From the IMG/VR virus record IMGVR_UViG_2913147268_000005: a stretch of DNA of 64,000 bases; one strand, 5' to 3'. Positions 822 to 38,912 of this stretch are shown piece after piece. The stretch is from a virus. Its lineage: Duplodnaviria > Heunggongvirae > Uroviricota > Caudoviricetes. The notes beneath the pieces are model-generated. The model did not search any database. It was not told the DNA's origin and saw nothing but the letters and a program-made list of their open reading frames with translations. Positions within the stretch are counted from its first letter, which is position 1. Every line of letters starts with the position of its first letter. A program made the position numbers and the translations under genes.

Positions 822-1994
822 TTAATTATGATTATGCAAATGATTTATCGATGTAAAGTTATCATACTCTTTAAGATACGAACCATAGTGCCTGAAAAGC
901 ATCTCCGGCCCTTTATGCCCCATTTGAGCTGCAAGCCAAAACAGGTTTGCTCCTCGGCTGATATGGCTGGTGGCGAATGTATGCCTGGTTTGATATGGGT
1001 TTCTGTAACGAATACCTGCTTTTCGCAATGTTGGCACCCATGCTTTTTTCCTAATTGCATCAGCACTTGCCCAAGGCTTATTGGTCTTTGGATCTTCAAA
1101 GACAGTAGCATCCTTCATGAATGTAAATGGCTTCTGATTTATCAGCGCCAACATTGCCTCTTCTGTCAGTTCAACTTTCCGAGTACCTGCTTTTGTCTTT
1201 GTCCCTTTGATAACACCGACAACACTTGCGCTCTGGACATGGGCAGTTTTTCCAACAAAGTCGATATCACGCCATCGAAGGGCACATAATTCAGAACTAC
1301 GCAGGCCTGTATGTATAGCGAACCGGAACAGATTTTCCCATTGTTTGTTTCCGGCTGCTGCTAGTAATGCATCAACTTCTGCTGGTGATAGCGGATCAAC
1401 CACGTAGCTGCTTTCTGCTTCTGACTTATCACTTTGGTAGCGCGAAGCAGTTACCAACGATACGGGGTTAATTTGAAGTACCCCATCGGTTACGGCTTCA
1501 TCAAGTGCTGACCGCAGGAAAGATAACTGGTTGCGAATTGTTTTTAAGGTCGTTTTCTGGCTTTGAATCCACGCTTTCAGGATTGCTGGTGTTAATTCAC
1601 TTGCAGGGCAAATGTGGAGTGAGGCTAACGCACTACGGCATTTTTTATAACCACCAATCGTAGAGGGTGAAAGTTTTCTCGTTTCGCAGATTTCAAGGTA
1701 TTCGTCCAGGTACATTTTTACCGTTTTGCCTGCAGCAGCATTACCAAAAATTTTCAAACGAGCAGAACGGGGAAAATATTCCGCATAAATGAATGTTCCC
1801 CTTTCGATCTTATTATGAATTTCGCCGAGTGTGCGCTCGGCGTATTTTATGTTCTTTGGTGTTACTTCCAGATTGGAAAGAGGCTCACGACATTTAACTC
1901 CTTTGTAGGTGAAAGTTATATTGATCGTTTCGCCCTGGCGGTGTTTCCTGATTGTTACGCCGCGCGGTAGTTTGAGCAGTTTTGTCTGGCCCAT
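822..1994 (-). CDS. int: Phage tyrosine integrase
   Basis: 390-aa ORF; C-terminal tyrosine-recombinase region (RHTFATSHISRGANLFWLAAQMGHKGPEMLFRHYGSY); ATG start; sits beside an excisionase-like gene. Confidence 0.9.
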   Translation of the reverse strand: MGQTKLLKLPRGVTIRKHRQGETINITFTYKGVKCREPLSNLEVTPKNIKYAERTLGEIHNKIERGTFIYAEYFPRSARLKIFGNAAAGKTVKMYLDEYLEICETRKLSPSTIGGYKKCRSALASLHICPASELTPAILKAWIQSQKTTLKTIRNQLSFLRSALDEAVTDGVLQINPVSLVTASRYQSDKSEAESSYVVDPLSPAEVDALLAAAGNKQWENLFRFAIHTGLRSSELCALRWRDIDFVGKTAHVQSASVVGVIKGTKTKAGTRKVELTEEAMLALINQKPFTFMKDATVFEDPKTNKPWASADAIRKKAWVPTLRKAGIRYRNPYQTRHTFATSHISRGANLFWLAAQMGHKGPEMLFRHYGSYLKEYDNFTSINHLHNHN

Positions 1995-3450: not shown

Positions 3451-4275
3451 TCAGGCGGTGAAAGTCCCAATAAAGGTTTCTACTTTGCTGTCCTTGAATT
3501 TCTCAACAAGCAGATCACGAAATTCGTTAGCCATATCTTCCTGCACCGCTTCCAGCTGAATAATGCGCAGAACCAGTACCGGACGATCGCCAGTGATAAT
3601 GCTGAGGCGTAATTTAAACGGACGTTCTTTCAGACCTTCAAACGGAACGCATTTAAACTCAAATGCCACTGGCATAATGTCTTTGGTCTTCGCTTCGACA
3701 GACTCCATCAGGGAGCGTTTGCCGCTGAAGTCATTATCTTCAAAATCAGCAGTCTGGTTTGCTTCAATCGTGATTTTACGGACCGCCGCAGCCGCTTTTG
3801 TTGCCTGAATGGCATCACCATTAGCATCAAAGCCCACAAGGTAGTCGGCCCAGTCTTCAATCCATTCTGCCAGAGACTTCTGGGAGTTACGCTCGCCGTT
3901 AACAGACAATAGTGCAGAGAACGGTGCTGTCTTTTTCAGTTTGAGAGTGGCGGTGTTATCTGCGTGACCTGGTTCATCAATAGTACCCAGGTTAAGCACA
4001 CTGACGGCACGCATATTATCGGCATCGATAAAGCAGCGGGTGCCTTCATCTGCAAGATCTTTAGAATAACGGGTAAAGTCATCGATGCTGGCAGTGGAAA
4101 GCGCACCACGGAAACGGAAGCGATTTAAATTAAATTTTTCCAGATCATGAATGCGGAAATTCTCAGGCAATGCCACAGCATCGGCACCAATCTTACTGAT
4201 AATTTCATTAACACCCTGAGCAGAAACAAGGGCATGGATTTGATTAATTGCGGTTGCGTCTAAGTTCTGAGACAT
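3451..4275 (-). CDS. Phage protein, YfdQ/DUF2303-like (274 aa)
   Basis: Size and position match the CPS-53-type early-left gene set; the family call is from recollection, not a search. Confidence 0.55.
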
Positions 4276-4340
4276 AATAAGTCCTCACTATATAAAGATA
4301 TTCAGTGATGAGATAAATAATCAGTTTATTAAGAACGATA

Positions 4341-4703
4341 TTAACGACCTGCTGCGCGGAGTTTTCCGTCAGGTTCACCGGCAAGAGTCAGTAATTGTCC
4401 CTGGTCTTCCTGCAGAATAGTCAGGCGACCACCGCGATTGACATACATCGGCGTTTCGGTGGTGTCTTCTTCAGAAATTTTCCCGCGGTTAGTCGGGCGA
4501 ACATATGAGAGTTTGTGTTTGATTTTCACACGGTTCTCATCAAATGGTTCGATTTCCAGGTTGAGTGAGACCTTACCTTTGGTTTTCGTGTTCATCACAC
4601 CGGAAGCGACTTCACTGAGAACTGCGCCGATTTTGGTTTCAAATACGCCGCCGTCCAGCTCCCCGATAAATGCCTGCACATCAGTACTGCGTTCGCTAGC
4701 CAT
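4341..4703 (-). CDS. Hypothetical phage early protein (120 aa)
   Basis: Internal ATG at 4703 preceded by a GAGGAG RBS; the longer 226-aa frame upstream lacks coding character. Confidence 0.5.
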   Translation of the reverse strand: MASERSTDVQAFIGELDGGVFETKIGAVLSEVASGVMNTKTKGKVSLNLEIEPFDENRVKIKHKLSYVRPTNRGKISEEDTTETPMYVNRGGRLTILQEDQGQLLTLAGEPDGKLRAAGR

Positions 4704-4754
4704 TTTGCTGCTCCTCATCATATCGACCCTGCAAGGTCGGTTAGTTTCTCCACA

Positions 4755-4840
4755 AAACAGAGAAGAACACCTGCGGTGACTGCCGCCCGGATGGATTGGG
4801 TTATGAGCCCGTCGTCCGGTGATGCTCTTCTCTGTTTTGT
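4755..4840. repeat. Perfect 15-bp inverted repeat (ACAAAACAGAGAAGA / TCTTCTCTGTTTTGT) enclosing about 56 nt; candidate structured RNA or DNA element
   Basis: Read directly from sequence; lies in a roughly 470-bp stretch with no convincing ORF. Confidence 0.45.
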
Positions 4841-5104
4841 AAAAAGGACGGTACCAGCCGGAAGCAAGGGTACAAGCTGGTACCGCCAAGACTACACACA
4901 GCATAAAGTTGTGGTGCCGGGTGCCTCCCGGTGCCTGGCGAAGGTTGCACACTAGGCGGGTGGGTATCCACAGAAGGTCGACTGTCAGCCTCAACCTTAA
5001 CCCGCGTGCGCTGAGCCGCATTCACCACAACGCTAAGGATTCTCTCTGGTTGAAAATACTTAGCTGTTATGTGCCTGCTTTTAGCCACATCAGGCGAGGT
5101 GGAC

Positions 5105-5156
5105 CTGGTTATTCCCCAACAACAAGGATTCGGTTAATCTGGTTATCCCCAACAAC
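5105..5156 (+). promoter_or_regulatory. Two direct repeats (CTGGTTATTCCCCAACAAC / CTGGTTATCCCCAACAAC) upstream of the 5172 gene
   Basis: Near-identical 18-bp repeats about 34 bp apart, ending about 15 bp before the RBS of the downstream ORF. Confidence 0.35.
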
Positions 5157-5171
5157 GCAAAAGGAAAAGAA

Positions 5172-5606
5172 ATGTCCGGTAATATCTATACGCTGTACAA
5201 ATCCCACTGTGAAAATGTTGGAAAGTATCGGGGCATTGAAATCAGTGGGGTAGTGTCATCAGTCGAAATAAGCAAAGTTGAATCAAGGGCAACATTACTT
5301 ACTCTTTTGGACCTTGTCTTACATGAGCACCGGAAGAAATTCGGCACTCCCTATAATCAGTTGAATGGGAAAAAGGCTCTGGTTCACCTTATTCTGATGA
5401 AGCATCACTGGATGCCAAAACAGATTAATGAGATGAAATTTGATGAACTTCTTCTTTCAATTCAGGATGAACTCACACTTGATAAAATAAGCGTAACCGC
5501 CCAGAAATTTTTAGATTATCGAGACTGGAGATCACAAATTCATCACTTTGATGATTTTGACGAAAATGAATGGGATCCTAATTTGTCTGCACAATATCTA
5601 AAGTAA
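5172..5606 (+). CDS. Hypothetical protein (144 aa), opposite-strand moron inside the early-left region
   Basis: ATG with AAGGAAAAG RBS; AT-rich; convergent with and overlapping the 3' end of the leftward small gene. Confidence 0.45.
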   Translation: MSGNIYTLYKSHCENVGKYRGIEISGVVSSVEISKVESRATLLTLLDLVLHEHRKKFGTPYNQLNGKKALVHLILMKHHWMPKQINEMKFDELLLSIQDELTLDKISVTAQKFLDYRDWRSQIHHFDDFDENEWDPNLSAQYLK

Positions 5607-5784
5607 CATCCTGTGATAAAACCGTGATTTCCTGATCCAGTTTTTTTAAGGAGTCTATTGTTTCCTGTCGATAAGACAGCACTTCACGAAGCTGGTTTAT
5701 AGCTGCCAGCTTCTTTGTCATCCACTCATAAATTTCCTCATCTGTGTAGCCAGGCGCGACGATTTTGGGTTCTGTTTTGTGCAT
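5578..5784 (-). CDS. Small early-left protein (68 aa) at the position of antiterminator N
   Basis: ATG at 5784 with GAGGAG RBS 7 nt upstream; first gene downstream of the putative leftward promoter; no recognisable Arg-rich N motif. Confidence 0.4.
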   Translation of the reverse strand: MHKTEPKIVAPGYTDEEIYEWMTKKLAAINQLREVLSYRQETIDSLKKLDQEITVLSQDVTLDIVQTN

Positions 5785-5843
5785 TTCACATCTCCTCAAG
5801 TTATCAGTTACTTGTTGATGGGGACCAGATTGTTAAAGAGCTA

Positions 5844-5866
5844 AGCGTCCTGTAGGGCGCTTTTTT
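5844..5866 (+). terminator. Intrinsic terminator candidate (stem AGCGTCC/GGGCGCT, then T6)
   Basis: Hairpin followed by TTTTTT on the plus strand, about 240 nt downstream of the 5172-5606 ORF. Confidence 0.5.
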
Positions 5867-5939
5867 GTTGCTAACGAATCATCCTGGACTTCATATGCCC
5901 CAGGCGGCTACTTCGTGGGCGTCCTGCCTGTTCGTTATC

Positions 5940-6031
5940 TTTGACATAAAATCTAACTTAACTTAGTTATTATGGCAAGAGAAAACACCAAACTTTTCTT
6001 AGTTCGGTGCCTTAGTTAGAGAAGAGAGGTC
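5940..6031 (-). promoter_or_regulatory. Putative leftward early promoter/operator region (PL/OL-like) with CTTAGTT repeats
   Basis: Repeated CTTAGTT / AACTTAGTT motifs immediately 3' of the repressor gene; same motif family as in the cI-cro intergenic region. Confidence 0.4.
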
Positions 6032-6658
6032 TTAGAGTTCGTATTGAACTCCTTTGACTACACCAATGATAAGGCAATTACCATTGATAGGGATGTTGGG
6101 ATACCGAGGATTTAATGGCACTAAAAACTTTTGAGGGCCATCGATGACTAATTTTTTTACTGTAGCTTCGTTTGTTCCATCAAGTCGAGCGATGACTATT
6201 TTTCCATGACGAGGTTCTGCATCTGGATCTACAATCACTGTTGCGCCTTCTGGTATTGTTGGGAGGCCATTAGGGTTAGTCATGGAGTCACCTTTAACCT
6301 CTAATGCAAATGAGTTATCACCAATCTTTAATGATGTATCTACCCACTTGTCCACTTCACTAAACACTTCTGCTGCCCTGCACTCAGTAAACTGCCCAGC
6401 CTGAACCCACGATATTACAGGAACTCTGCGCATGTTTGTGACGAGTTTGCCTTCAAACTCAGCACCATAAAGAATGTAATCTATTGACGTATTGAAGAAC
6501 TTCGCTAATTTCGAAAGTGCCTCCCCACCAGGGGTATTGATGTCTTTCTCCCAGTACCCCACAGCAACGTCGCTTACTCCACAAAATTTACCCAATTCTT
6601 TCTGGGACGTTCTGGTAACTCTTCTCAGAGCTTTTATACGCTGACCAACCGTTTCCAT
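6032..6658 (-). CDS. cI: CI-type phage repressor (HTH plus LexA-like S24 peptidase domain)
   Basis: 208 aa; N-terminal HTH (QKELGKFCGVSDVAVGYWE); C-terminal autocleavage domain with Ser (GDSM) and Lys (VIARLDG...KKL) regions; divergent from the cro-like gene. Confidence 0.85.
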   Translation of the reverse strand: METVGQRIKALRRVTRTSQKELGKFCGVSDVAVGYWEKDINTPGGEALSKLAKFFNTSIDYILYGAEFEGKLVTNMRRVPVISWVQAGQFTECRAAEVFSEVDKWVDTSLKIGDNSFALEVKGDSMTNPNGLPTIPEGATVIVDPDAEPRHGKIVIARLDGTNEATVKKLVIDGPQKFLVPLNPRYPNIPINGNCLIIGVVKGVQYEL

Positions 6659-6755
6659 AGGAGCACCATTTCTTTAATTACTAAGTAATCTTAGTTTTTA
6701 TTGACCAAAGATAGATTTGTAATTAGCATCTAATAAAACTTAGTTTGGAGGGCGT
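6659..6755. promoter_or_regulatory. Divergent repressor/cro promoter-operator region
   Basis: 97-bp intergenic region with the 13-bp palindrome ATTACTAAGTAAT and two CTTAGTT half-site-like repeats. Confidence 0.6.
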
Positions 6756-6956
6756 ATGACAACTGACGATATCGAAAGCTACTTCGGCAGTATTGAGAAA
6801 GTTGCTGCTTTTTTCGGCATAACAACTGAAGCCGTTTATCAGTGGCGAAACCGTCCGGGCCAGTTAATTCCAAAAGGACGTGCAGCAGAAGCTGCATATA
6901 GAACTTGCGGACGGTTGCCATTTAAACCTGAGCTTTATGAAAAATCTAATGGATAA
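6756..6956 (+). CDS. cro: Cro-type small HTH regulator
   Basis: 66 aa; HTH-like segment (EKVAAFFGITTEAVYQWRN); divergent from cI. Confidence 0.7.
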   Translation: MTTDDIESYFGSIEKVAAFFGITTEAVYQWRNRPGQLIPKGRAAEAAYRTCGRLPFKPELYEKSNG

Positions 6957-7546
6957 ATCGATTAACAGAAACCACAGAACGATGAGGCTAACCGTGGGTA
7001 AGCATCACTGGAAAGTAGAAAAACAGCCTGAGTGGTACGTGAAAGCTGTCAGAAAAACTATCGCAGCGTTGCCGGGGGGGTTACGCTGAAGCTGCTGACT
7101 GGCTGGATGTAACAGAGAACGCATTATTTAACCGCCTTCGTGCCGATGGCGATCAGATTTTCCCGCTGGGATGGGCAATGATTTTGCAACGTGCTGGTGG
7201 AACTCACTTCATTGCAGATGCTGTGGCGCAGTCTGCAAATGGCGTCTTTGTGTCTCTTCCTGACGTCGAGGATGTGGACAACGCTGATATTAACCAGCGT
7301 CTGCTGGAAGTCATTGAACAGATCGGCAGTTATTCAAAACAGATTCGTTCAGCAATCGAAGACGGTGTAGTGGAACCGCATGAGAAGACAGCAATTAATG
7401 ACGAGCTCTACCTCTCAATTTCGAAGCTGCAGGAGCATGCAGCACTGGTCTACAAAATTTTTTGCATTTCAGAAAGTAATGACGCCCGCGAGTGTGCAGC
7501 TCCGGGCGCCGTGGCGTGTCGTGACTGTGGAGAAACTAACGCATGA
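6937..7546 (+). pseudogene. CII/YdaT-like regulator gene interrupted by a frameshift at a G7 homopolymer
   Basis: ORF 6937-7089 and the frame ending at 7546 join into one ~203-aa product if the G7 run at 7074-7080 were G6; the downstream part (ENALFNRLRADGDQIFPLGWAMILQ) resembles CII-type regulators. Confidence 0.4.
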
Positions 7547-11503: not shown

Positions 11504-12115
11504 GTGACCGTGAGAGCACTACTGACCCCTGAAATTGCCCCGCGTATGGGGATCGTATTGTTCAGGCCAGGTTCAGAGTTGATGCCCCTGTTTATGCAGG
11601 GGCGTGTCCTGCTGGAGCCTGAGCCGGAACGTTATTCATCTTTCGCCAGTGGTGCAGTTCCGGCGGCATCACAACCGCTGGCGGATGATCCTGCCGTTCG
11701 GGCCGTGTTCCGCAATGAGGCAGTGATCCGTCGTGCTGGTGGCGTGGAATGTCTTGAAAGCTGGTTACTTCGTGAAAAAGGCTGCCAGTGGCCTCATTCC
11801 GACTGGCACAGCGAGAACATGACCACAATGCGACACGCTCCGGGCGCAATCCGTCTGTGCTGGCACTGCGATAACCAGCTGCGCGATCAGTTCACGGAAC
11901 GGCTGGAATCAATGGCAACGGATAACTGTGCCCGCTGGGTGTTGTCTGTTGTGCGTCGGGATCTCGGTTTTGATGACAGTCACGTTGTGACAATGCCGGA
12001 ACTGTGCTGGTGGCTGATTCGTAATGATCTGGCGGATGCCTTACCGGAAAGTGCAGCCCGTAAGGCACTGAGATTACCGAAGCCNNNNNNNNNNGTCTGT
12101 TACCCGGGAAAGTGA
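11504..12115 (+). CDS. N-terminal part of a nin-region protein (DUF968/YdfU-like); frame broken at the assembly gap
   Basis: GTG start; the ORF runs into the N10 gap and stops 19 nt after it, so the stop and the split are probably artefactual. Confidence 0.45.
   Translation: MTVRALLTPEIAPRMGIVLFRPGSELMPLFMQGRVLLEPEPERYSSFASGAVPAASQPLADDPAVRAVFRNEAVIRRAGGVECLESWLLREKGCQWPHSDWHSENMTTMRHAPGAIRLCWHCDNQLRDQFTERLESMATDNCARWVLSVVRRDLGFDDSHVVTMPELCWWLIRNDLADALPESAARKALRLPKXXXXVCYPGK
12085..12094. other. Assembly gap (10 N)
   Basis: Run of n characters in the sequence. Confidence 0.99.
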
Positions 12116-34466: not shown

Positions 34467-34542
34467 GGCCCTTTAGCTCAGTGGTGAGAGCGAGCGACTC
34501 ATAATCGCCAGGTCGCTGGTTCAAATCCAGCAAGGGCCACCA
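34467..34542 (+). tRNA. tRNA with CAU anticodon (ileZ-like tRNA-Ile2 or tRNA-Met)
   Basis: Cloverleaf with acceptor GGCCCTT/AAGGGCC, GTTCAAATCC T-loop, CTCATAA anticodon loop, 3' ACCA. Confidence 0.8.
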
Positions 34543-34642
34543 TCACAAACCGCCATTAGCTTATCAGGAAGAGCAGACGACACGATAACAGGGTTGTTGG
34601 TGCGGGGGCGGGTCCCCGATGGCGGTCCATTATCGGTATTCA

Positions 34643-34719
34643 GCGTTGTTAGCTCAGCCGGACAGAGCAATTGCCTTCTAAGCAATCGGTCACTGGTTCG
34701 AATCCAGTACAGCGCGCCA
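34643..34719 (+). tRNA. tRNA-Arg (UCU anticodon)
   Basis: Cloverleaf with TAGCTCAGCCGGACAGAGC D-arm, CCTTCTAAG anticodon loop, GGTTCGAATCC T-loop, 3' GCCA. Confidence 0.8.
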
Positions 34720-34826
34720 TATTCATTCTTCCAGATTCCTTCCGGCAGAGCCTTATACTGAAATATACCTGGCTCAGGATATTGTTGAAAATATTATATG
34801 TTTGTCAAAAATAAAAGTTCTGTTAA

Positions 34827-35183
34827 GTGTTGATTGAGTGTTTGTTATACGGTCTAATGGTTTTTTCAGCATTAAATATTTATCATTCATATGGTGTGGG
34901 TAGAGTGAATATTGATGAGGCGTCGGGGTGTTTCATCCTTAGGCAGCGTATTGATATAGTCAATGCAGCACGAGCAAAGGCCTTCAGCCGTTTGACAGTT
35001 TTGTTCTGTACTCCTGATCGTCTTTCGGGAAGAGACGTTATTATTCTGAATAGTGATGCTATACAGAGGGTTTGCGATGAGTTCATGGTGGCTAATTCAG
35101 AATTATTTACTCTTGTTCAGGAGTACAACAGAATAGCCAGGACCTGTGGTATGGATGAACTTCGGATTACTCATCTGGGGTAG
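34827..35183 (+). CDS. Hypothetical protein (108-118 aa), AT-rich
   Basis: GTG or internal ATG start; no recognisable motif; occupies the slot after the tRNAs. Confidence 0.4.
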   Translation: MLIECLLYGLMVFSALNIYHSYGVGRVNIDEASGCFILRQRIDIVNAARAKAFSRLTVLFCTPDRLSGRDVIILNSDAIQRVCDEFMVANSELFTLVQEYNRIARTCGMDELRITHLG

Positions 35184-35569
35184 ATACATATCTGGATTAT
35201 CACCGGTTACGGTAAAAAGTGATTGCTTACTGTTTTTGTGAATGGCATTGCTGCAGCCGGATAATGTCAGTGCTGGCTGACGGTGTGCTGGTGGCGGGTG
35301 TGGTGGTTGTTGCTTTCCCGTTGCTGAAAAAGAAAACGCCAGACTGTTAGCCGGGTATCAGTTAGCGGGAGAAATTTTTAAATACTTCACAATTCAGGCG
35401 GTTGATTGTTGTCTGGTTTGCGGGGAGTTTGTTAAAAGAAACTGGCATGGTGAATCCCCCTGTGCGGAGGGGCAATCAGCGAGTAGGTATATGGGATAAT
35501 CGCGGATTCAGGTGCTGGTACTGAATTCACCGGGAGGCACCCGGCACCATGCAATGGCACATAGCGCCA

Positions 35570-35600
35570 CTCTCCAGCCCCTCTCCGGAGGGGCTGTTTA
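35570..35600 (+). terminator. Hairpin (9-bp stem CAGCCCCTC/GAGGGGCTG) followed by a T-rich tract
   Basis: Perfect 9-bp stem with 4-nt loop; sits between the convergent 34827 and 35631 ORFs. Confidence 0.5.
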
Positions 35601-35630
35601 TATTGATTTTGTCAGATGTGAGTAAACTCC

Positions 35631-35966
35631 TTATGGACTTTGTTGTTTTAGTCCATAAGGACATATTTGCAGAGTGCAACGGTTATTAAAGCATTCATTC
35701 AATACGTTATCTGTATTTGTAGGGCATTCCTGGCTGTTTTTGATTAAATTCCAGAATGTTTTATTGAATGGTACTACGTTGTAAATGGTTACAGGTAGCA
35801 CTTTGTTATTGAGCATGATGCCTGTGTGAGTCAGTGTAAATATACTTTCAGGAGGTAAGAAAGCATCCGATTGATACCAGATTATTAATTTTATTTTACT
35901 CCATATGACTGAAAAAGATATTCCGCATGATGGCTGGATAACTGTATCAATCACAATCCACTTCAT
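35631..35966 (-). CDS. Hypothetical Cys-containing protein (111 aa), AT-rich
   Basis: ORF on the minus strand in an AT-rich island; no motif assigned. Confidence 0.4.
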
Positions 35967-36211
35967 TTAGTTTCCTTGTTTATGCCTTGCTGGTGATGTT
36001 CTGAAAAGTATAAATGATATTTTTGATTGTAAACCATAGAGCAGAATTATTTTTCTGATGTTGTTTATTGTTTATTTAAATGCAGGGTGGTTTATATCTC
36101 GTCTTGTAGTTTATCCATGCATATCTGCTTGATGATGAGGTTTTTATTTAAGGTATGGTTTTGTGTTTTTTCTGTATTACATGTCAGGTATTTTAAAGAA
36201 TCATTTTTCAG

Positions 36212-36705
36212 ATGGTGGAAAGAACCATGGCATTTAAACACTATGATGTTGTCAGGGCGGCGTCGCCGTCAGATCTTGCGGAAAAGCTGACACATAAACT
36301 GAAAGAGGGCTGGCAGCCGTTTGGTAGTCCGGTGGCCATAACCCCTTATACCCTGATGCAGGCGATTGCAGCAGAAGGTGATGTGGTCGTCAGTGGTGCA
36401 ACTGAGCCGGAGTGGTACTACGTCATCGTACTGGCCGGGCAATCCAATGCCATGGCTTACGGTGAAGGGCTTCCGCTTCCGGATTCATACGATGCGCCCC
36501 ATCCGCGCATTAAGCAACTGGCCCGTCGTAACACAGTGACTCCCGGTGGTGAAGTATGCGTATTTAACGACATCATTCCTGCTGACCATTGTCTGCATGA
36601 TGTTCAGGATATGAGTACGATTAACCATCCCCGGGCTGACCTGAGCAAAGGGCAGTACGGCTGTGTCGGACAGGGCTTACATATTGCCAAAAAACTGCTT
36701 CCGTG
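36212..36705 (+). pseudogene. NanS-p-like esterase, N-terminal fragment
   Basis: Matches the 54243 esterase through ...GQGLHIAKKLLP (including the GQSNA motif), then diverges into the antisense of another ORF. Confidence 0.6.
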
Positions 36706-37339
36706 CATTTTTGGTAATATCCGTCAGCGTCAGCGCATTCAGCCCCAGTGTCAGACTGTCTTTTATGACCTGGAATGCCGGGCCAGCCACTCCATTCAGT
36801 TTCGGAGTAACCGTGGCACTGCCGGCGGTGAACACCAGCTCCAGCGTCTGCCAGTCGTTACTGTAATTCCCGAACTCGCCCAACTTTGTGTTTCCTGCTT
36901 TCTTGTGATGCATCAGATTCAGTTTGCCGTCTGTGGTCTGGGTGAAGAACGACATCAGGAACGGGTTACCAGTCCCGGTCATCGCCACGACGTCAGGTAA
37001 CGCTACATCGGTATACAGATAAATTCCCAGACCGAACTGATTGTTGGTCAGTGCGCCTGACAGTCGAAACTTACAGCTCAGTCTGCCACCCCGTGTCAGC
37101 AGGGAGACTGCGTCATCCACCGGGCGCGTCAGGGACCAGGCTTTATTGCTCTGCTTGGTGATCTTAAATACACCATCTGACAACTGAATTCCGCCATTCT
37201 TAATGCTCCAGCCCTGCGCAGCAGCATCTCCGGCTGTCGGCAACAGGGAGATTGTGCGTACGGATGCATCTTCAGACGGCCCCGATGGCGTGTCGCCGCC
37301 GGGCGAGGGTTTGATTTCCGGTGCCTTACCACTAGTCAT
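36677..37339 (-). pseudogene. Inverted gene fragment (220-aa ORF) starting with the 56-bp repeat and ending in the antisense of the esterase fragment
   Basis: Begins MTSGKAPEIKPSPGGDTPSGP (the same peptide the 54243 ORF encodes at its junction); the last ~10 codons are antisense to 36677-36705. Confidence 0.45.
37278..37333 (-). repeat. 56-bp inverted repeat, left copy
   Basis: Reverse complement reads AGTGGTAAGGCACCGGAAATCAAACCCTCGCCCGGCGGCGACACGCCATCGGGGCC, identical to 55434-55489 by my reading. Confidence 0.8.
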
Positions 37340-37393
37340 CGGGCATTATCTGAACATAAAACACTATCAATAAGTTGGAGTCATTACCCAAAA

Positions 37394-37804
37394 ATGCACG
37401 CAAAAGAAGAAGGTATCATCAGAGCACTGAAAGAAATTTCAAAGACAGAAAACGAAGTAGCGAAAAAAGCCATAGCAAATAATCATATGGACGTCGCAAC
37501 CCACACACTGATAGTCGCAAGAGTCACGGCAGAAGCAGCCGAAATTATCGCAAAACAGGATGCTGAACTGGCGGTTCTCAGAACACAACCAGTCACCGGA
37601 CTGGATTTGTCTAACACCGGACGCCTTATTTACACAATTGGCTCGGAGCTACAGCGATACACCATTATCGCCGGGTTACAGGATAAATACCTGATCACTC
37701 CTCACCCCATAAGGGAATCAGAAATTCTGACAAATCTCCGCCTGATAGAGCGCTCTCAAGTCGCATTCATTGATGACGCACAGTGCACCGTATTTAACGC
37801 ATAG
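37394..37804 (+). CDS. Hypothetical protein (136 aa)
   Basis: ORF with ATG start at the left end of the P2-like module. Confidence 0.5.
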   Translation: MHAKEEGIIRALKEISKTENEVAKKAIANNHMDVATHTLIVARVTAEAAEIIAKQDAELAVLRTQPVTGLDLSNTGRLIYTIGSELQRYTIIAGLQDKYLITPHPIRESEILTNLRLIERSQVAFIDDAQCTVFNA

Positions 37805-37827
37805 AGTTACTGGACAAAGGGGGCGCA

Positions 37828-38031
37828 ATGGCAATTAAGCATTTTCCCGTCGTTCGCTTTACCTCCAGAGGGCGCGAATACGAGGTCGACGAACGCCTGA
37901 TTACCACTATCGACAAACATCGTTCGGAAAAGGATGCACACCACATCTACCTCACTGACGGCACTTACTTCTGCGCCACTAATGTGGCGCGGGTAAACCT
38001 TATCCGACAGGTACAGGAGCCACGCAGATGA
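37828..38031 (+). CDS. Hypothetical small protein (67 aa)
   Basis: ORF overlapping the next gene by 4 nt. Confidence 0.4.
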   Translation: MAIKHFPVVRFTSRGREYEVDERLITTIDKHRSEKDAHHIYLTDGTYFCATNVARVNLIRQVQEPRR

Positions 38032-38294
38032 CCATTCTGGACTACATCGCTACTCATCCGGGGTGTAGCGGCGGAGAGATCGCCGCAGCACTGAATACTC
38101 CAACCACAGCCATTAATGCTGAGTTACGCCAACTTTGGCGCGGCGGCTTAGTCATCAGAACAAACCGCAGCACAGGTGGTCGCGCTCGCAAAACTGGAGG
38201 CCAGGCTTCTTACCACGTAAACCCGATGCCGTTCGGGTGTAGCAATCCACTTACTCACATGTTTAACCAGCTACTGAAGGAAGCCAGAACATGA
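38028..38294 (+). CDS. Winged-helix DNA-binding protein (88 aa)
   Basis: HPGCSGGEIAAAL motif shared with the N-terminus of the 8829-9323 protein. Confidence 0.5.
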   Translation: MTILDYIATHPGCSGGEIAAALNTPTTAINAELRQLWRGGLVIRTNRSTGGRARKTGGQASYHVNPMPFGCSNPLTHMFNQLLKEART

Positions 38295-38590
38295 GCACCA
38301 TCAACCACCAGAAGCTACGCGAACTGGCATTTGCCCTGCAACGAATGGCAACACCTCAAAAATTACTGGCATTTCGCGCAATGCTCTCGCCGTCTGCTGC
38401 GCTGGCATTGCTGGATGAGCTGGAGCACGCCAGAACCACGGCTCCTGCCATTCGCCTGACGCTCCATCATGAAATCGCTGATTTCTGCGCGACATTGGAG
38501 GTGCCAGGCGAACCGGAAACGCCGGAAGCAATACAGCAAGAGCTGCTGCAACGTATTGACAAGGTTTTTGATTTTTTTCTGAACCAGTAA
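38291..38590 (+). CDS. Hypothetical protein (99 aa)
   Basis: ORF overlapping the upstream gene by 4 nt. Confidence 0.5.
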   Translation: MSTINHQKLRELAFALQRMATPQKLLAFRAMLSPSAALALLDELEHARTTAPAIRLTLHHEIADFCATLEVPGEPETPEAIQQELLQRIDKVFDFFLNQ

Positions 38591-38713
38591 GAAACCAGAG
38601 CATGCACACACAAAAAAACCGCTTGCCATGCCGCAATCAGTCAGGTTACATTTCCGCTGCACCTCATAAAACGGGTGCCGGGTTTCGCAGCCTGCTGACT
38701 ACACAAGCGCACA

Positions 38714-38733
38714 ACCGCGCCAGCGGTTTTTTT
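38714..38733 (+). terminator. Intrinsic terminator candidate (ACCGC-GCCA-GCGGT plus T7)
   Basis: Hairpin plus T-run about 125 nt after the 38291-38590 gene. Confidence 0.45.
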
Positions 38734-38912
38734 GTGCGTACTGTATTGCCACGTTTTTTTCGCGTCAGAATTATGGCGGGGCGTACGGGGCCGACTTCGG
38801 TCGGGCCGGGTTCTTGTGTAGCCGGTACTGCGAACCTCGTACGTCTCGCCACCCACAGTTTCGCAGCTCTGGATGGTGAGTTTTCACAACTTACTACACA
38901 AGGGGCCACACC

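Follow-up and report, generated by a model that had tools for sequence, protein, structure and literature searches.

The 64,000-nucleotide (nt) stretch of viral DNA analysed here (the window; IMG/VR record IMGVR_UViG_2913147268_000005) is a lambdoid prophage of the SfV/SfIV/e14/CPS-53 type, and between the leader RNA of its leftward promoter, PL, and an STnc100-like structured RNA lies a hotspot for cargo cassettes. In this prophage the hotspot holds a 144-amino acid (aa) gene of the ECs1072 family, oriented against the early-left operon, and a convergent 68-aa partner gene. The cassette is enclosed by inverted repeats whose arm sequence co-varies with the cargo, and on the PL side it is bordered by a boxA of the type found in ribosomal RNA (rrn) operons and by a terminator that is predicted to work in one direction only. 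It is proposed that the cargo is expressed in the lysogen and that, on induction, the PL transcript crosses the cassette as an antisense RNA that is protected by boxA and the Nus factors, bracketed by the stem of the inverted repeats, and able to silence the cargo. The transcripts and the protein function in this model are predicted ones, and the model as a whole is given a probability of about 0.5.

A hotspot for accessory cassettes

The site is widespread in Escherichia coli, where 1,113 of 5,426 complete genomes match a query spanning positions 5090-5880 and 408 have the whole module. In about 700 other genomes mostly only the two ends of the query match, that is, the flanks are present with other cargo between them, and five such genomes that were inspected have other plus-strand genes, of 159-171 aa, in the interval. 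By anchoring on either flank at least 24 cassette types of 350-835 nt were recovered from IMG/VR, all loci examined being enterobacterial and related. The types include ECs1072-like pairs, coiled-coil plus zinc-ribbon proteins, two-transmembrane-helix proteins flanked by proline-rich mini open reading frames (ORFs), and signal-peptide LprI-like proteins. The cargo proteins gave no Pfam match above threshold and no PADLOC match (both genes of the present cassette and six alternative cargo proteins). The two-transmembrane-helix cargo can be seen in loci L008 (1201-2125) and L011 (1201-2078), where a protein of about 150-170 aa starting with MTRDD is flanked on both sides by tiny ORFs for proline-rich peptides with PxPEPKP-like endings, and such flanking by tiny proline-rich ORFs recurs in several diverged cassette types.

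Taking the flanks as reference, 23 of the 24 cassette types have their main cargo ORF on the plus strand; the exception, cluster 19, has a disrupted copy of the same plus-strand cargo gene, and no inverted cassette was seen. An invertible segment of the Hin/Gin/Cin or fimS type was rejected, as there is one orientation only and no invertase gene is adjacent. A transposable element with terminal inverted repeats was also rejected, since the motif occurs only here in the window and all loci share the same phage position. The GTT/GTT that flanks this cassette is not kept in other cassettes.

The present insert opposes the early-left operon because the minus strand carries int, xis, the yfdR/Q/P-like genes and cI, and it is AT-rich, with a GC fraction of 0.35-0.42 over 5100-5700 (0.40 for the whole cassette) versus 0.53-0.56 over 4600-5100. 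An earlier note on this DNA had described the 144-aa ORF as AT-rich, set against the operon and part of a moron-type insert, and the coordinates, base composition and gene strands bear this out: the insert is compositionally distinct, polymorphic in presence and absence among near-identical phages, on the opposite strand, and equipped with its own factor-independent terminator. Convergent gene pairs are a recurrent design at this hotspot position, as they also occupy it in SfV (an 81-aa plus-strand ORF with orf33) and in K-12 e14 (ymfI/ymfJ). The e14 pair lies at 498-1085 of locus L133 and the SfV pair, whose 81-aa ORF is unannotated, at 4823-5301 of locus L002, both with overlapping 3' ends.

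Inverted repeats that co-vary with the cargo

Two near-identical direct repeats lie upstream of the 144-aa ORF, as the earlier note had reported; they are spaced 34 base pairs (bp), and repeat 2 (CTGGTTATCCCCAACAAC, that is CTGGTTAT-CCCCAACAAC, at 5139-5156) differs from repeat 1 by one inserted T. They had been taken to be the gene's own, which is contradicted by their distribution, repeat 1 being part of a flank common to unrelated cargo and repeat 2 an arm found around every cassette type. That reading had also overlooked an inverted third copy of the repeat at 5811-5831 and a minus-strand boxA at 5841-5830. Repeat 1 pairs with 5811-5824 at 13 of 14 positions and may be a -35 region or an alternative 3' arm.

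The arm sequence of the inverted repeat co-varies with the cargo. Arms of about 20 bp are present in every cassette type, with the consensus AATCTGGATATCCCCAACAAC ... GGATATCCAGATT, and departures from this consensus are paired on both sides (GATGACT with AGTCATC; AATCTTGATAC with GTATACTAAGATT-like sequence; GTAACCCTC on both sides; AACAATG on both sides). Duplexes between a cassette's own arms have a mean of -25.5 kcal/mol versus -20.6 kcal/mol for cross-pairs (permutation on the variable part, p<1e-4), and the complementarity past the constant 7 nt exceeds that of shuffled arms in 23 of 23 types. A formal count over 38 variants found 83% of cells paired in the ungapped register and 13 pairs with double changes, while slid registers were only 24-50% paired; the covariation score is 0.183 versus 0.123 in shuffles (0/500). 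The minimum-free-energy fold of the whole cassette RNA contains an end-to-end stem in 22 of 23 types.

The co-variation bears directly on the idea that the cassette is a self-contained moron, with the direct repeats as its own operator sites and transcriptional interference with PL as its sole interplay with the phage. The repeats do stand directly upstream of the ORF, and the terminator and the convergent geometry are real, but the same repeat 1 and the core of repeat 2 precede at least 24 unrelated cargo genes and the third, inverted copy co-varies with repeat 2. As the cargo includes membrane and secreted proteins, no cassette-specific DNA-binding protein explains the co-variation, and the operator explanation is considered quite improbable.

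The inverted repeats could instead belong to the DNA level, as terminal repeats or scars of insertion or exchange, for instance at a palindromic target AATCTGGATATCCAGATT or by PeSL-like boundary recombination. Consistent with this, the palindrome GGATATCC forms the centre of the conserved 13-bp core, the fused arms give a perfect 18-bp palindrome, and cargo is swapped between identical flanks, for which PeSL-mediated shuffling offers a precedent (PMC2839356). However, no empty site was found in IMG/VR (four palindrome matches are unrelated), no recombinase travels with the cassettes, the motif is nowhere else in the window, and inversion does not occur, because all cargo has one orientation. 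Furthermore, the arms remain complementary for 7-12 bp past the common core, in sequence peculiar to each cassette, and G.U-type changes are tolerated; neither feature is predicted by a target-site duplication. A DNA-level role is judged unlikely.

Regarding the strand on which the stem would form, 21 of the 24 types have the more stable arm duplex when it is folded as minus-strand (PL-sense) RNA. There are 63 in-register G.U pairs in that strand against 18 in the plus strand, and transition mismatches of 32 versus 7 counted toward the same preference. A rival explanation places the repeats in the rightward cargo mRNA, where a panhandle between the 5' and 3' untranslated regions would stabilise a message made from a weak promoter and boxA would be incidental on that strand. 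This has in its favour that the end-to-end stem appears in plus-strand minimum-free-energy folds of 22 of 23 types with a mean pairing probability of 0.73, that the right arm abuts the plus-strand terminator, and that the arms belong to the cassette and not to the flanks. Against it, the plus-strand duplex is the less stable one in those 21 types, many of its pairs becoming A.C mismatches, and the 17-nt identity to rrn boxA described below is left unexplained. Moreover, if the candidate TAATCT hexamer is the -10 element, the plus-strand mRNA starts inside the left arm, so that the co-varying core (e.g. GATGACT) is absent from the message, which cannot then explain covariation in the first 10 nt of the arm. 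The panhandle is likewise judged unlikely, and the preference for a stem in the antisense PL transcript is retained.

An rrn-type boxA and a structured PL leader

Directly 3' of the terminator hairpin, on the minus strand, the exact 12-mer GCTCTTTAACAA at 5841-5830 matches the boxA consensus GCUCUUUAACAA and occurs once in the 64-kb window. It is extended to the 17-mer GCTCTTTAACAATCTGG, and the arm of the inverted repeat starts within this rrn-like boxA extension (AATCTGG). A scan of the 17-mer against one genome per species matched more than 120 loci; among 121 matches, 72-75 lie between a 16S 3' end and a 23S 5' end, in Photorhabdus, Aeromonas, Yersinia, Rahnella, Photobacterium and others, and one is the prophage. 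Many Gammaproteobacteria have the identical 17-mer in the boxA region of their 16S-23S spacers. In the rrnH operon of E. coli GCTCTTTAACAAT is the leader version and GCTCTTTAAAAATCTGGAT the spacer version, the latter being identical to phage variants that read ...GGATATCCAGATTTTTAAAGAGC. The boxA core GCTCTTTA is also kept when loci are recovered by way of the opposite flank, including those whose hairpin and arms differ. NusB/E bound to boxA has been proposed to stay tethered to RNA polymerase via SuhB and so to aid long-range folding (PMC4807359), and boxA shields the long untranslated transcripts of clustered regularly interspaced short palindromic repeats (CRISPR) from Rho (PMC7665894).

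Antitermination of the lambda N type was rejected for this site, since there is no boxB 3' of boxA, and the sole hairpin precedes boxA and is weak as minus-strand RNA. The hairpin was likewise rejected as the boxB or nut hairpin of the PL transcript, being systematically weaker on that strand.

Between the predicted PL start and the cassette the transcript would begin with a conserved leader RNA, which is kept across at least eight immunity types, including SfV and K-12 e14. It has three helices with covariation (94% paired; score 0.257 versus 0.099 in shuffles, 0/500), and the stem of its central hairpin varies as CG/UA/GC/AU. It is present in a single copy in the window, with no PR-side (putR-like) counterpart there, and has no Rfam match. 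It may be a cis-acting element, perhaps one like put, of a phage that has no N.

A one-way terminator

A terminator after the ORF at about 5844-5866 had been predicted and was found: the stem-loop AAGCGTCC TGTA GGGCGCTT is followed by TTTTTTG. Among 40 distinct variants of the hairpin the plus-strand fold is the more stable in 37 (mean -8.1 versus -5.1 kcal/mol), because conserved G.U pairs correspond to A.C mismatches in the opposite strand. All variants have the T-run on the plus strand, and compensatory changes are seen, e.g. AAGCG..CGCTT to CAGCG..CGCTG. Judged by this sequence pattern, the hairpin is a genuine terminator, predicted to be effective on the plus strand only; therefore the cargo transcript would halt before PL and cI, and PL transcripts should pass.

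The terminator had been said to overlap the small gene, which needs correcting, as it lies 59 nt upstream of the start codon of the 68-aa gene, and the overlap is instead one of 29 nt (5578-5606) between the 3' ends of the two convergent ORFs. The further claim stands: a plus-strand transcript that stopped at the terminator would cover the 68-aa gene along its full length as antisense RNA, and its synthesis would run towards that from PL.

The ECs1072-family cargo gene

The 144-aa gene is a real, conserved accessory gene under purifying selection. Its product matches the NCBIfam model NF033230, 'ECs1072 family phage-associated protein', over residues 4-144 (157.8 bits, cut-off 70; E 1.7e-46) and phrog_5286 over residues 1-144 (E 1.5e-90). 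An exhaustive HMMER search yielded 65 clusters of the family at 50% identity, nearly all of 143-157 aa, and in the family alignment H72 and W134 are invariant and R54, G66 and W80 near-invariant. It had been asked whether the ORF might be absent or disrupted in all relatives; it is intact in all 44 IMG/VR loci that bear this cassette, and compared with the E. albertii type the ratio of non-synonymous to synonymous substitution rates (dN/dS) is 0.23 at a dS of 0.75. The AlphaFold2 model of the protein is all-alpha with a mean confidence (predicted local distance difference test, pLDDT) of 93.6; neither model nor sequence has a match in PDB or BFVD, and the protein has no match in Pfam or PADLOC.

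ECs1072 itself is among the genes that shift 2.1-fold across growth transitions in a microarray of uninduced O157 Sakai (PMC2241611), a signal which hints that members of the family are transcribed in lysogens. The position of the weak, putative -10 hexamer is occupied by TAATCT, TATAAT, TATTCT or TATTAT across cassette types. Going by the position of the cassette and the diversity of the cargo, it may be guessed, and this is the least certain part of the present account, that the 144-aa protein benefits the lysogen as a factor for superinfection exclusion or defence and that the partner is its lytic-phase modulator or neutraliser.

The convergent 68-aa partner gene

The small minus-strand gene is real, as the earlier note had it, with a GAGGAG Shine-Dalgarno sequence, and is intact in 43 of the 44 IMG/VR loci with this cassette. 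The label 'N-position gene' is apt for its location and not for its nature: the 68-aa protein is acidic, and its AlphaFold2 model consists of a short beta element and one long helix (residues 15-67). Identity with a lambda N-type protein was rejected, given the acidic start MHKTEPKIVAPGYTDEEIYEW..., the missing arginine cluster and the long-helix prediction; no N-like arginine-rich protein is encoded among the translated ORFs of the early-left operon.

Each of the six ECs1072-type cassettes found at this site has, in convergent orientation behind it, a homologue of the partner (25-52% identity) with a conserved EPKIIAPG..EE..W..KL motif. In L134, an AT-rich phage unrelated to this one, the same convergent pair is found beside the repressor, and there the large protein is only 38% identical. 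The 68-aa gene is missing from most other cassette types at the site and travels with the 144-aa family; more distant database 'homologues' are frameshifted fragments. As the partner is kept convergent with ECs1072 genes, the two form a conserved, mutually antisense two-gene module. In a RecE-type prophage (L004, 5560-5950) an ECs1072 homologue is associated with similar boundary repeats and the GCTCTTTAAAAA motif, and is followed by a GC-rich stretch of about 350 nt that is apparently non-coding and structured-looking.

A conserved, mutually antisense module of two small proteins, one of them a simple helix, could also be a toxin-antitoxin or addiction-type pair that stabilises the prophage and has nothing to do with exclusion or defence. 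The genes are, however, convergent and overlapping with no operon, no toxin-antitoxin or defence profile in Pfam, NCBIfam or PADLOC matches them, and the family member in L004 has no partner. Furthermore, production of the partner would be confined to times of PL activity, the opposite of what is needed of an antitoxin in a lysogen, and such a pair is very improbable here.

Proposed mechanism

In the lysogen PL would be repressed, and a weak promoter in the constant left flank would drive rightward transcription of the cargo, which would stop at the one-way terminator and so not enter PL and cI. Upon induction or infection, PL transcripts would pass the hairpin, which in that orientation is weak and has no U-tract. 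The boxA could then recruit NusB/E, NusA/G and SuhB in the manner of rrn operons and CRISPR arrays, and RNA polymerase bound by Nus factors would resist Rho over several hundred untranslated antisense nt. The 5' arm immediately after boxA would pair with the 3' arm once the cassette has been crossed, giving a long-range stem around it like the processing stems of rrn operons, and this bracket stem may create an RNase III site. The PL transcript would also encode the 68-aa partner and would silence the 144-aa gene by collision and antisense pairing.

Several observations count against this model. A promoter scan found no sigma-70 consensus promoter on the plus strand for the 144-aa gene, and with TTCCCC as the best -35 candidate the putative cargo promoter scores only 7/12. 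The C/A-rich left arm by itself predicts an excess of minus-strand G.U pairs of about 2.5:1, cross-pairs too favour the minus strand, in 71% of cases (a weaker bias), and the end-to-end stem also folds on the plus strand. Because base composition and cross-pairs show a similar bias, the minus strand is favoured, not proven, and the relatedness of the loci means that the covariation counts are not fully independent. The cargo pairs of SfV and e14 have no inverted repeats, boxA or hairpin, so these boundary elements are not needed for a gene to be carried backward, and L004 is one relative of the ECs1072 family that has no partner gene. Finally, the defence role is argued from position, as the cargo has no PADLOC or Pfam match and its fold no known relative.

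Relation to known systems

The interval between repressor and N is a known site of morons (PMC7067206), and the cassette sits in the same slot beside the immunity region as lambda rexAB, P22 sieB, HK022 nun and BTP1 bstA. Like those morons it stands out by its base composition, differs from relative to relative and should be expressed in the lysogen (PMC7067206). Those morons run in the same direction as cI or PL; the cargo here points the opposite way and ends in a one-way terminator of its own, resembles none of them in sequence or fold, and is accompanied by a convergent partner, by inverted repeats that co-vary with the cargo and by a boxA. The PeSL cassettes of T4-type phages are alike in that a conserved promoter and stem-loop terminator flank hypervariable, non-essential genes that are swapped as modules (Arbiol et al. 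2010, PMC2839356), but PeSLs are direct repeats of one unit spread over the genome, whereas the cassette occupies a single site with two different flanks and inverted boundaries that co-vary with the cargo.

On the RNA side there is a likeness to rrn operons, with whose leader and spacer boxA the phage boxA shares 13-19 identical nt. As in rrn operons, it lies directly 5' of the arm of a long-range stem that encloses several hundred nt, and as with the boxA of rrn operons and CRISPR arrays it heads a long untranslated stretch (PMC4807359, PMC7665894). In contrast to rrn operons, the enclosed RNA is antisense to a protein gene and not a functional RNA, and the parallels regarding Nus, Rho and RNase III are predicted ones. 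In lambda nutL, where boxA, a spacer and the N-bound boxB follow each other, boxA likewise lies in the PL leader before the first early-left gene. The phage boxA differs in having no boxB after it, the adjacent hairpin preceding boxA and being weak on that strand, in having no N-like protein, and in matching the rrn consensus and not lambda's CGCTCTTA. The put RNA of HK022, a cis-acting antiterminator of a lambdoid phage that has no N, resembles the leader RNA described above as a conserved multi-helix RNA of about 70 nt after PL; the leader RNA differs in being single-copy with no PR-side counterpart, and the likeness is one of description, a lead and not a comparison of sequences.

Genomic setting

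The first 10 kb of the window make up the integration, early-left and immunity region of the prophage (Table 1). Positions 4300-7000 are 100% identical to Escherichia phage vB_EcoS-569R4, and Shigella phage SfIV is 98.4% identical up to position ~5936, beyond which the immunity regions differ. The predicted PL overlaps CTTAGTT-type operator half-sites, which are also found at PR.

Table 1. Features of the cassette and its surroundings in the window
Feature	Position	Strand	Remarks
int	822-1994	-	
xis and HD hydrolase (yfdR-like)	early-left operon	-	
DUF2303/yfdQ	3451-4275	-	
yfdP	4341-4703	-	
STnc100-like structured RNA	4838-5061	-	Rfam RF02076, 44.2 bits, E 1.3e-7, full-length match
Direct repeat 1, CTGGTTATTCCCCAACAAC	5105-5123	+	constant left flank, same upstream of unrelated cargo
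Candidate -10 hexamer TAATCT of cargo promoter	5135-5140	+	weak, putative
Left arm of cassette inverted repeat	5136-5156	+	repeat 2 and preceding AAT; complementary to 5811-5831
144-aa cargo gene, ECs1072 family (phrog_5286)	5172-5606	+	ATG after AAGGA Shine-Dalgarno sequence
68-aa partner gene	5578-5784	-	first ORF of PL transcript; phrog_1744; GAGGAG Shine-Dalgarno sequence
Right arm of cassette inverted repeat	5811-5831		inverted third repeat copy
rrn-type boxA plus extension, GCTCTTTAACAATCTGG	5825-5841	-	17-mer adjoining right arm
Predicted intrinsic terminator of cargo transcript	5843-5868	+	stem-loop 5843-5862 plus T-run
Conserved structured PL leader RNA	5867-5937	-	directly downstream of predicted PL start, ~70 nt
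Predicted PL	5950-5978	-	sigma-70 promoter scan: TTGCCA-17-TAGATT
LexA-type cI	6032-6658	-	
cro	6756-6956	+	replication genes also lie in this region

The STnc100-like RNA is the constant left neighbour of the cassette site and is kept in SfV, in e14 and in all loci examined. It is called 'STnc100-like' because its score lies under the gathering score of RF02076 (44.2 versus 47 bits). It separates the cassette from yfdP, and there is also a resemblance between its 3' hairpin and DicF. Annotated ORFs cover it, namely SfIV_34 (681 nt), a 54-aa plus-strand ORF at 4791-4955 and K-12 ymfH, as do RefSeq 'frameshifted hypothetical proteins'; these ORFs are probably not genes. A strong bona fide STnc100 copy (132 bits) is found at 35416-35605 (+), and together with two tRNA genes (34467-34539 and 34643-34716), isrK (38659-38733) and a C4 antisense RNA (38769-38856) it constitutes a further phage-type RNA cluster at 34467-38856 (+), far from the cassette. 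The translation of the ORF at 11504-12115 contains XXXX, which reflects a short run of N in the window at ~12080-12095.

Significance

The site is found in about one fifth of complete E. coli genomes and is loaded with one of at least 24 small uncharacterised proteins. As this pattern of cargo is typical of exclusion and defence hotspots, the site provides a ready list of candidates. The ECs1072 protein and its partner form a conserved pair whose fold is new.

A more general and rather doubtful extension of the model is that the site is a 'plug-in socket' for backward cargo, in which boxA, by tethering Nus factors at the start of the PL transcript, and the cargo-specific stem right behind it would let this transcript cross and loop out, or perhaps have excised by RNase III, any antisense cassette without Rho polarity, with the terminator protecting PL and cI. 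If this were true, RNA handling in the style of rrn operons would have been co-opted to insulate interchangeable accessory genes, which would explain how genes transcribed against an essential operon can be hosted without polarity. It would also provide an N-independent route for early-left antitermination and would extend the biology of boxA and Nus factors beyond rRNA, suhB and CRISPR arrays to lambdoid phages that have no N. The combination of one-way terminator, boxA and bracket stem would in that case be a compact natural insulator for synthetic biology.

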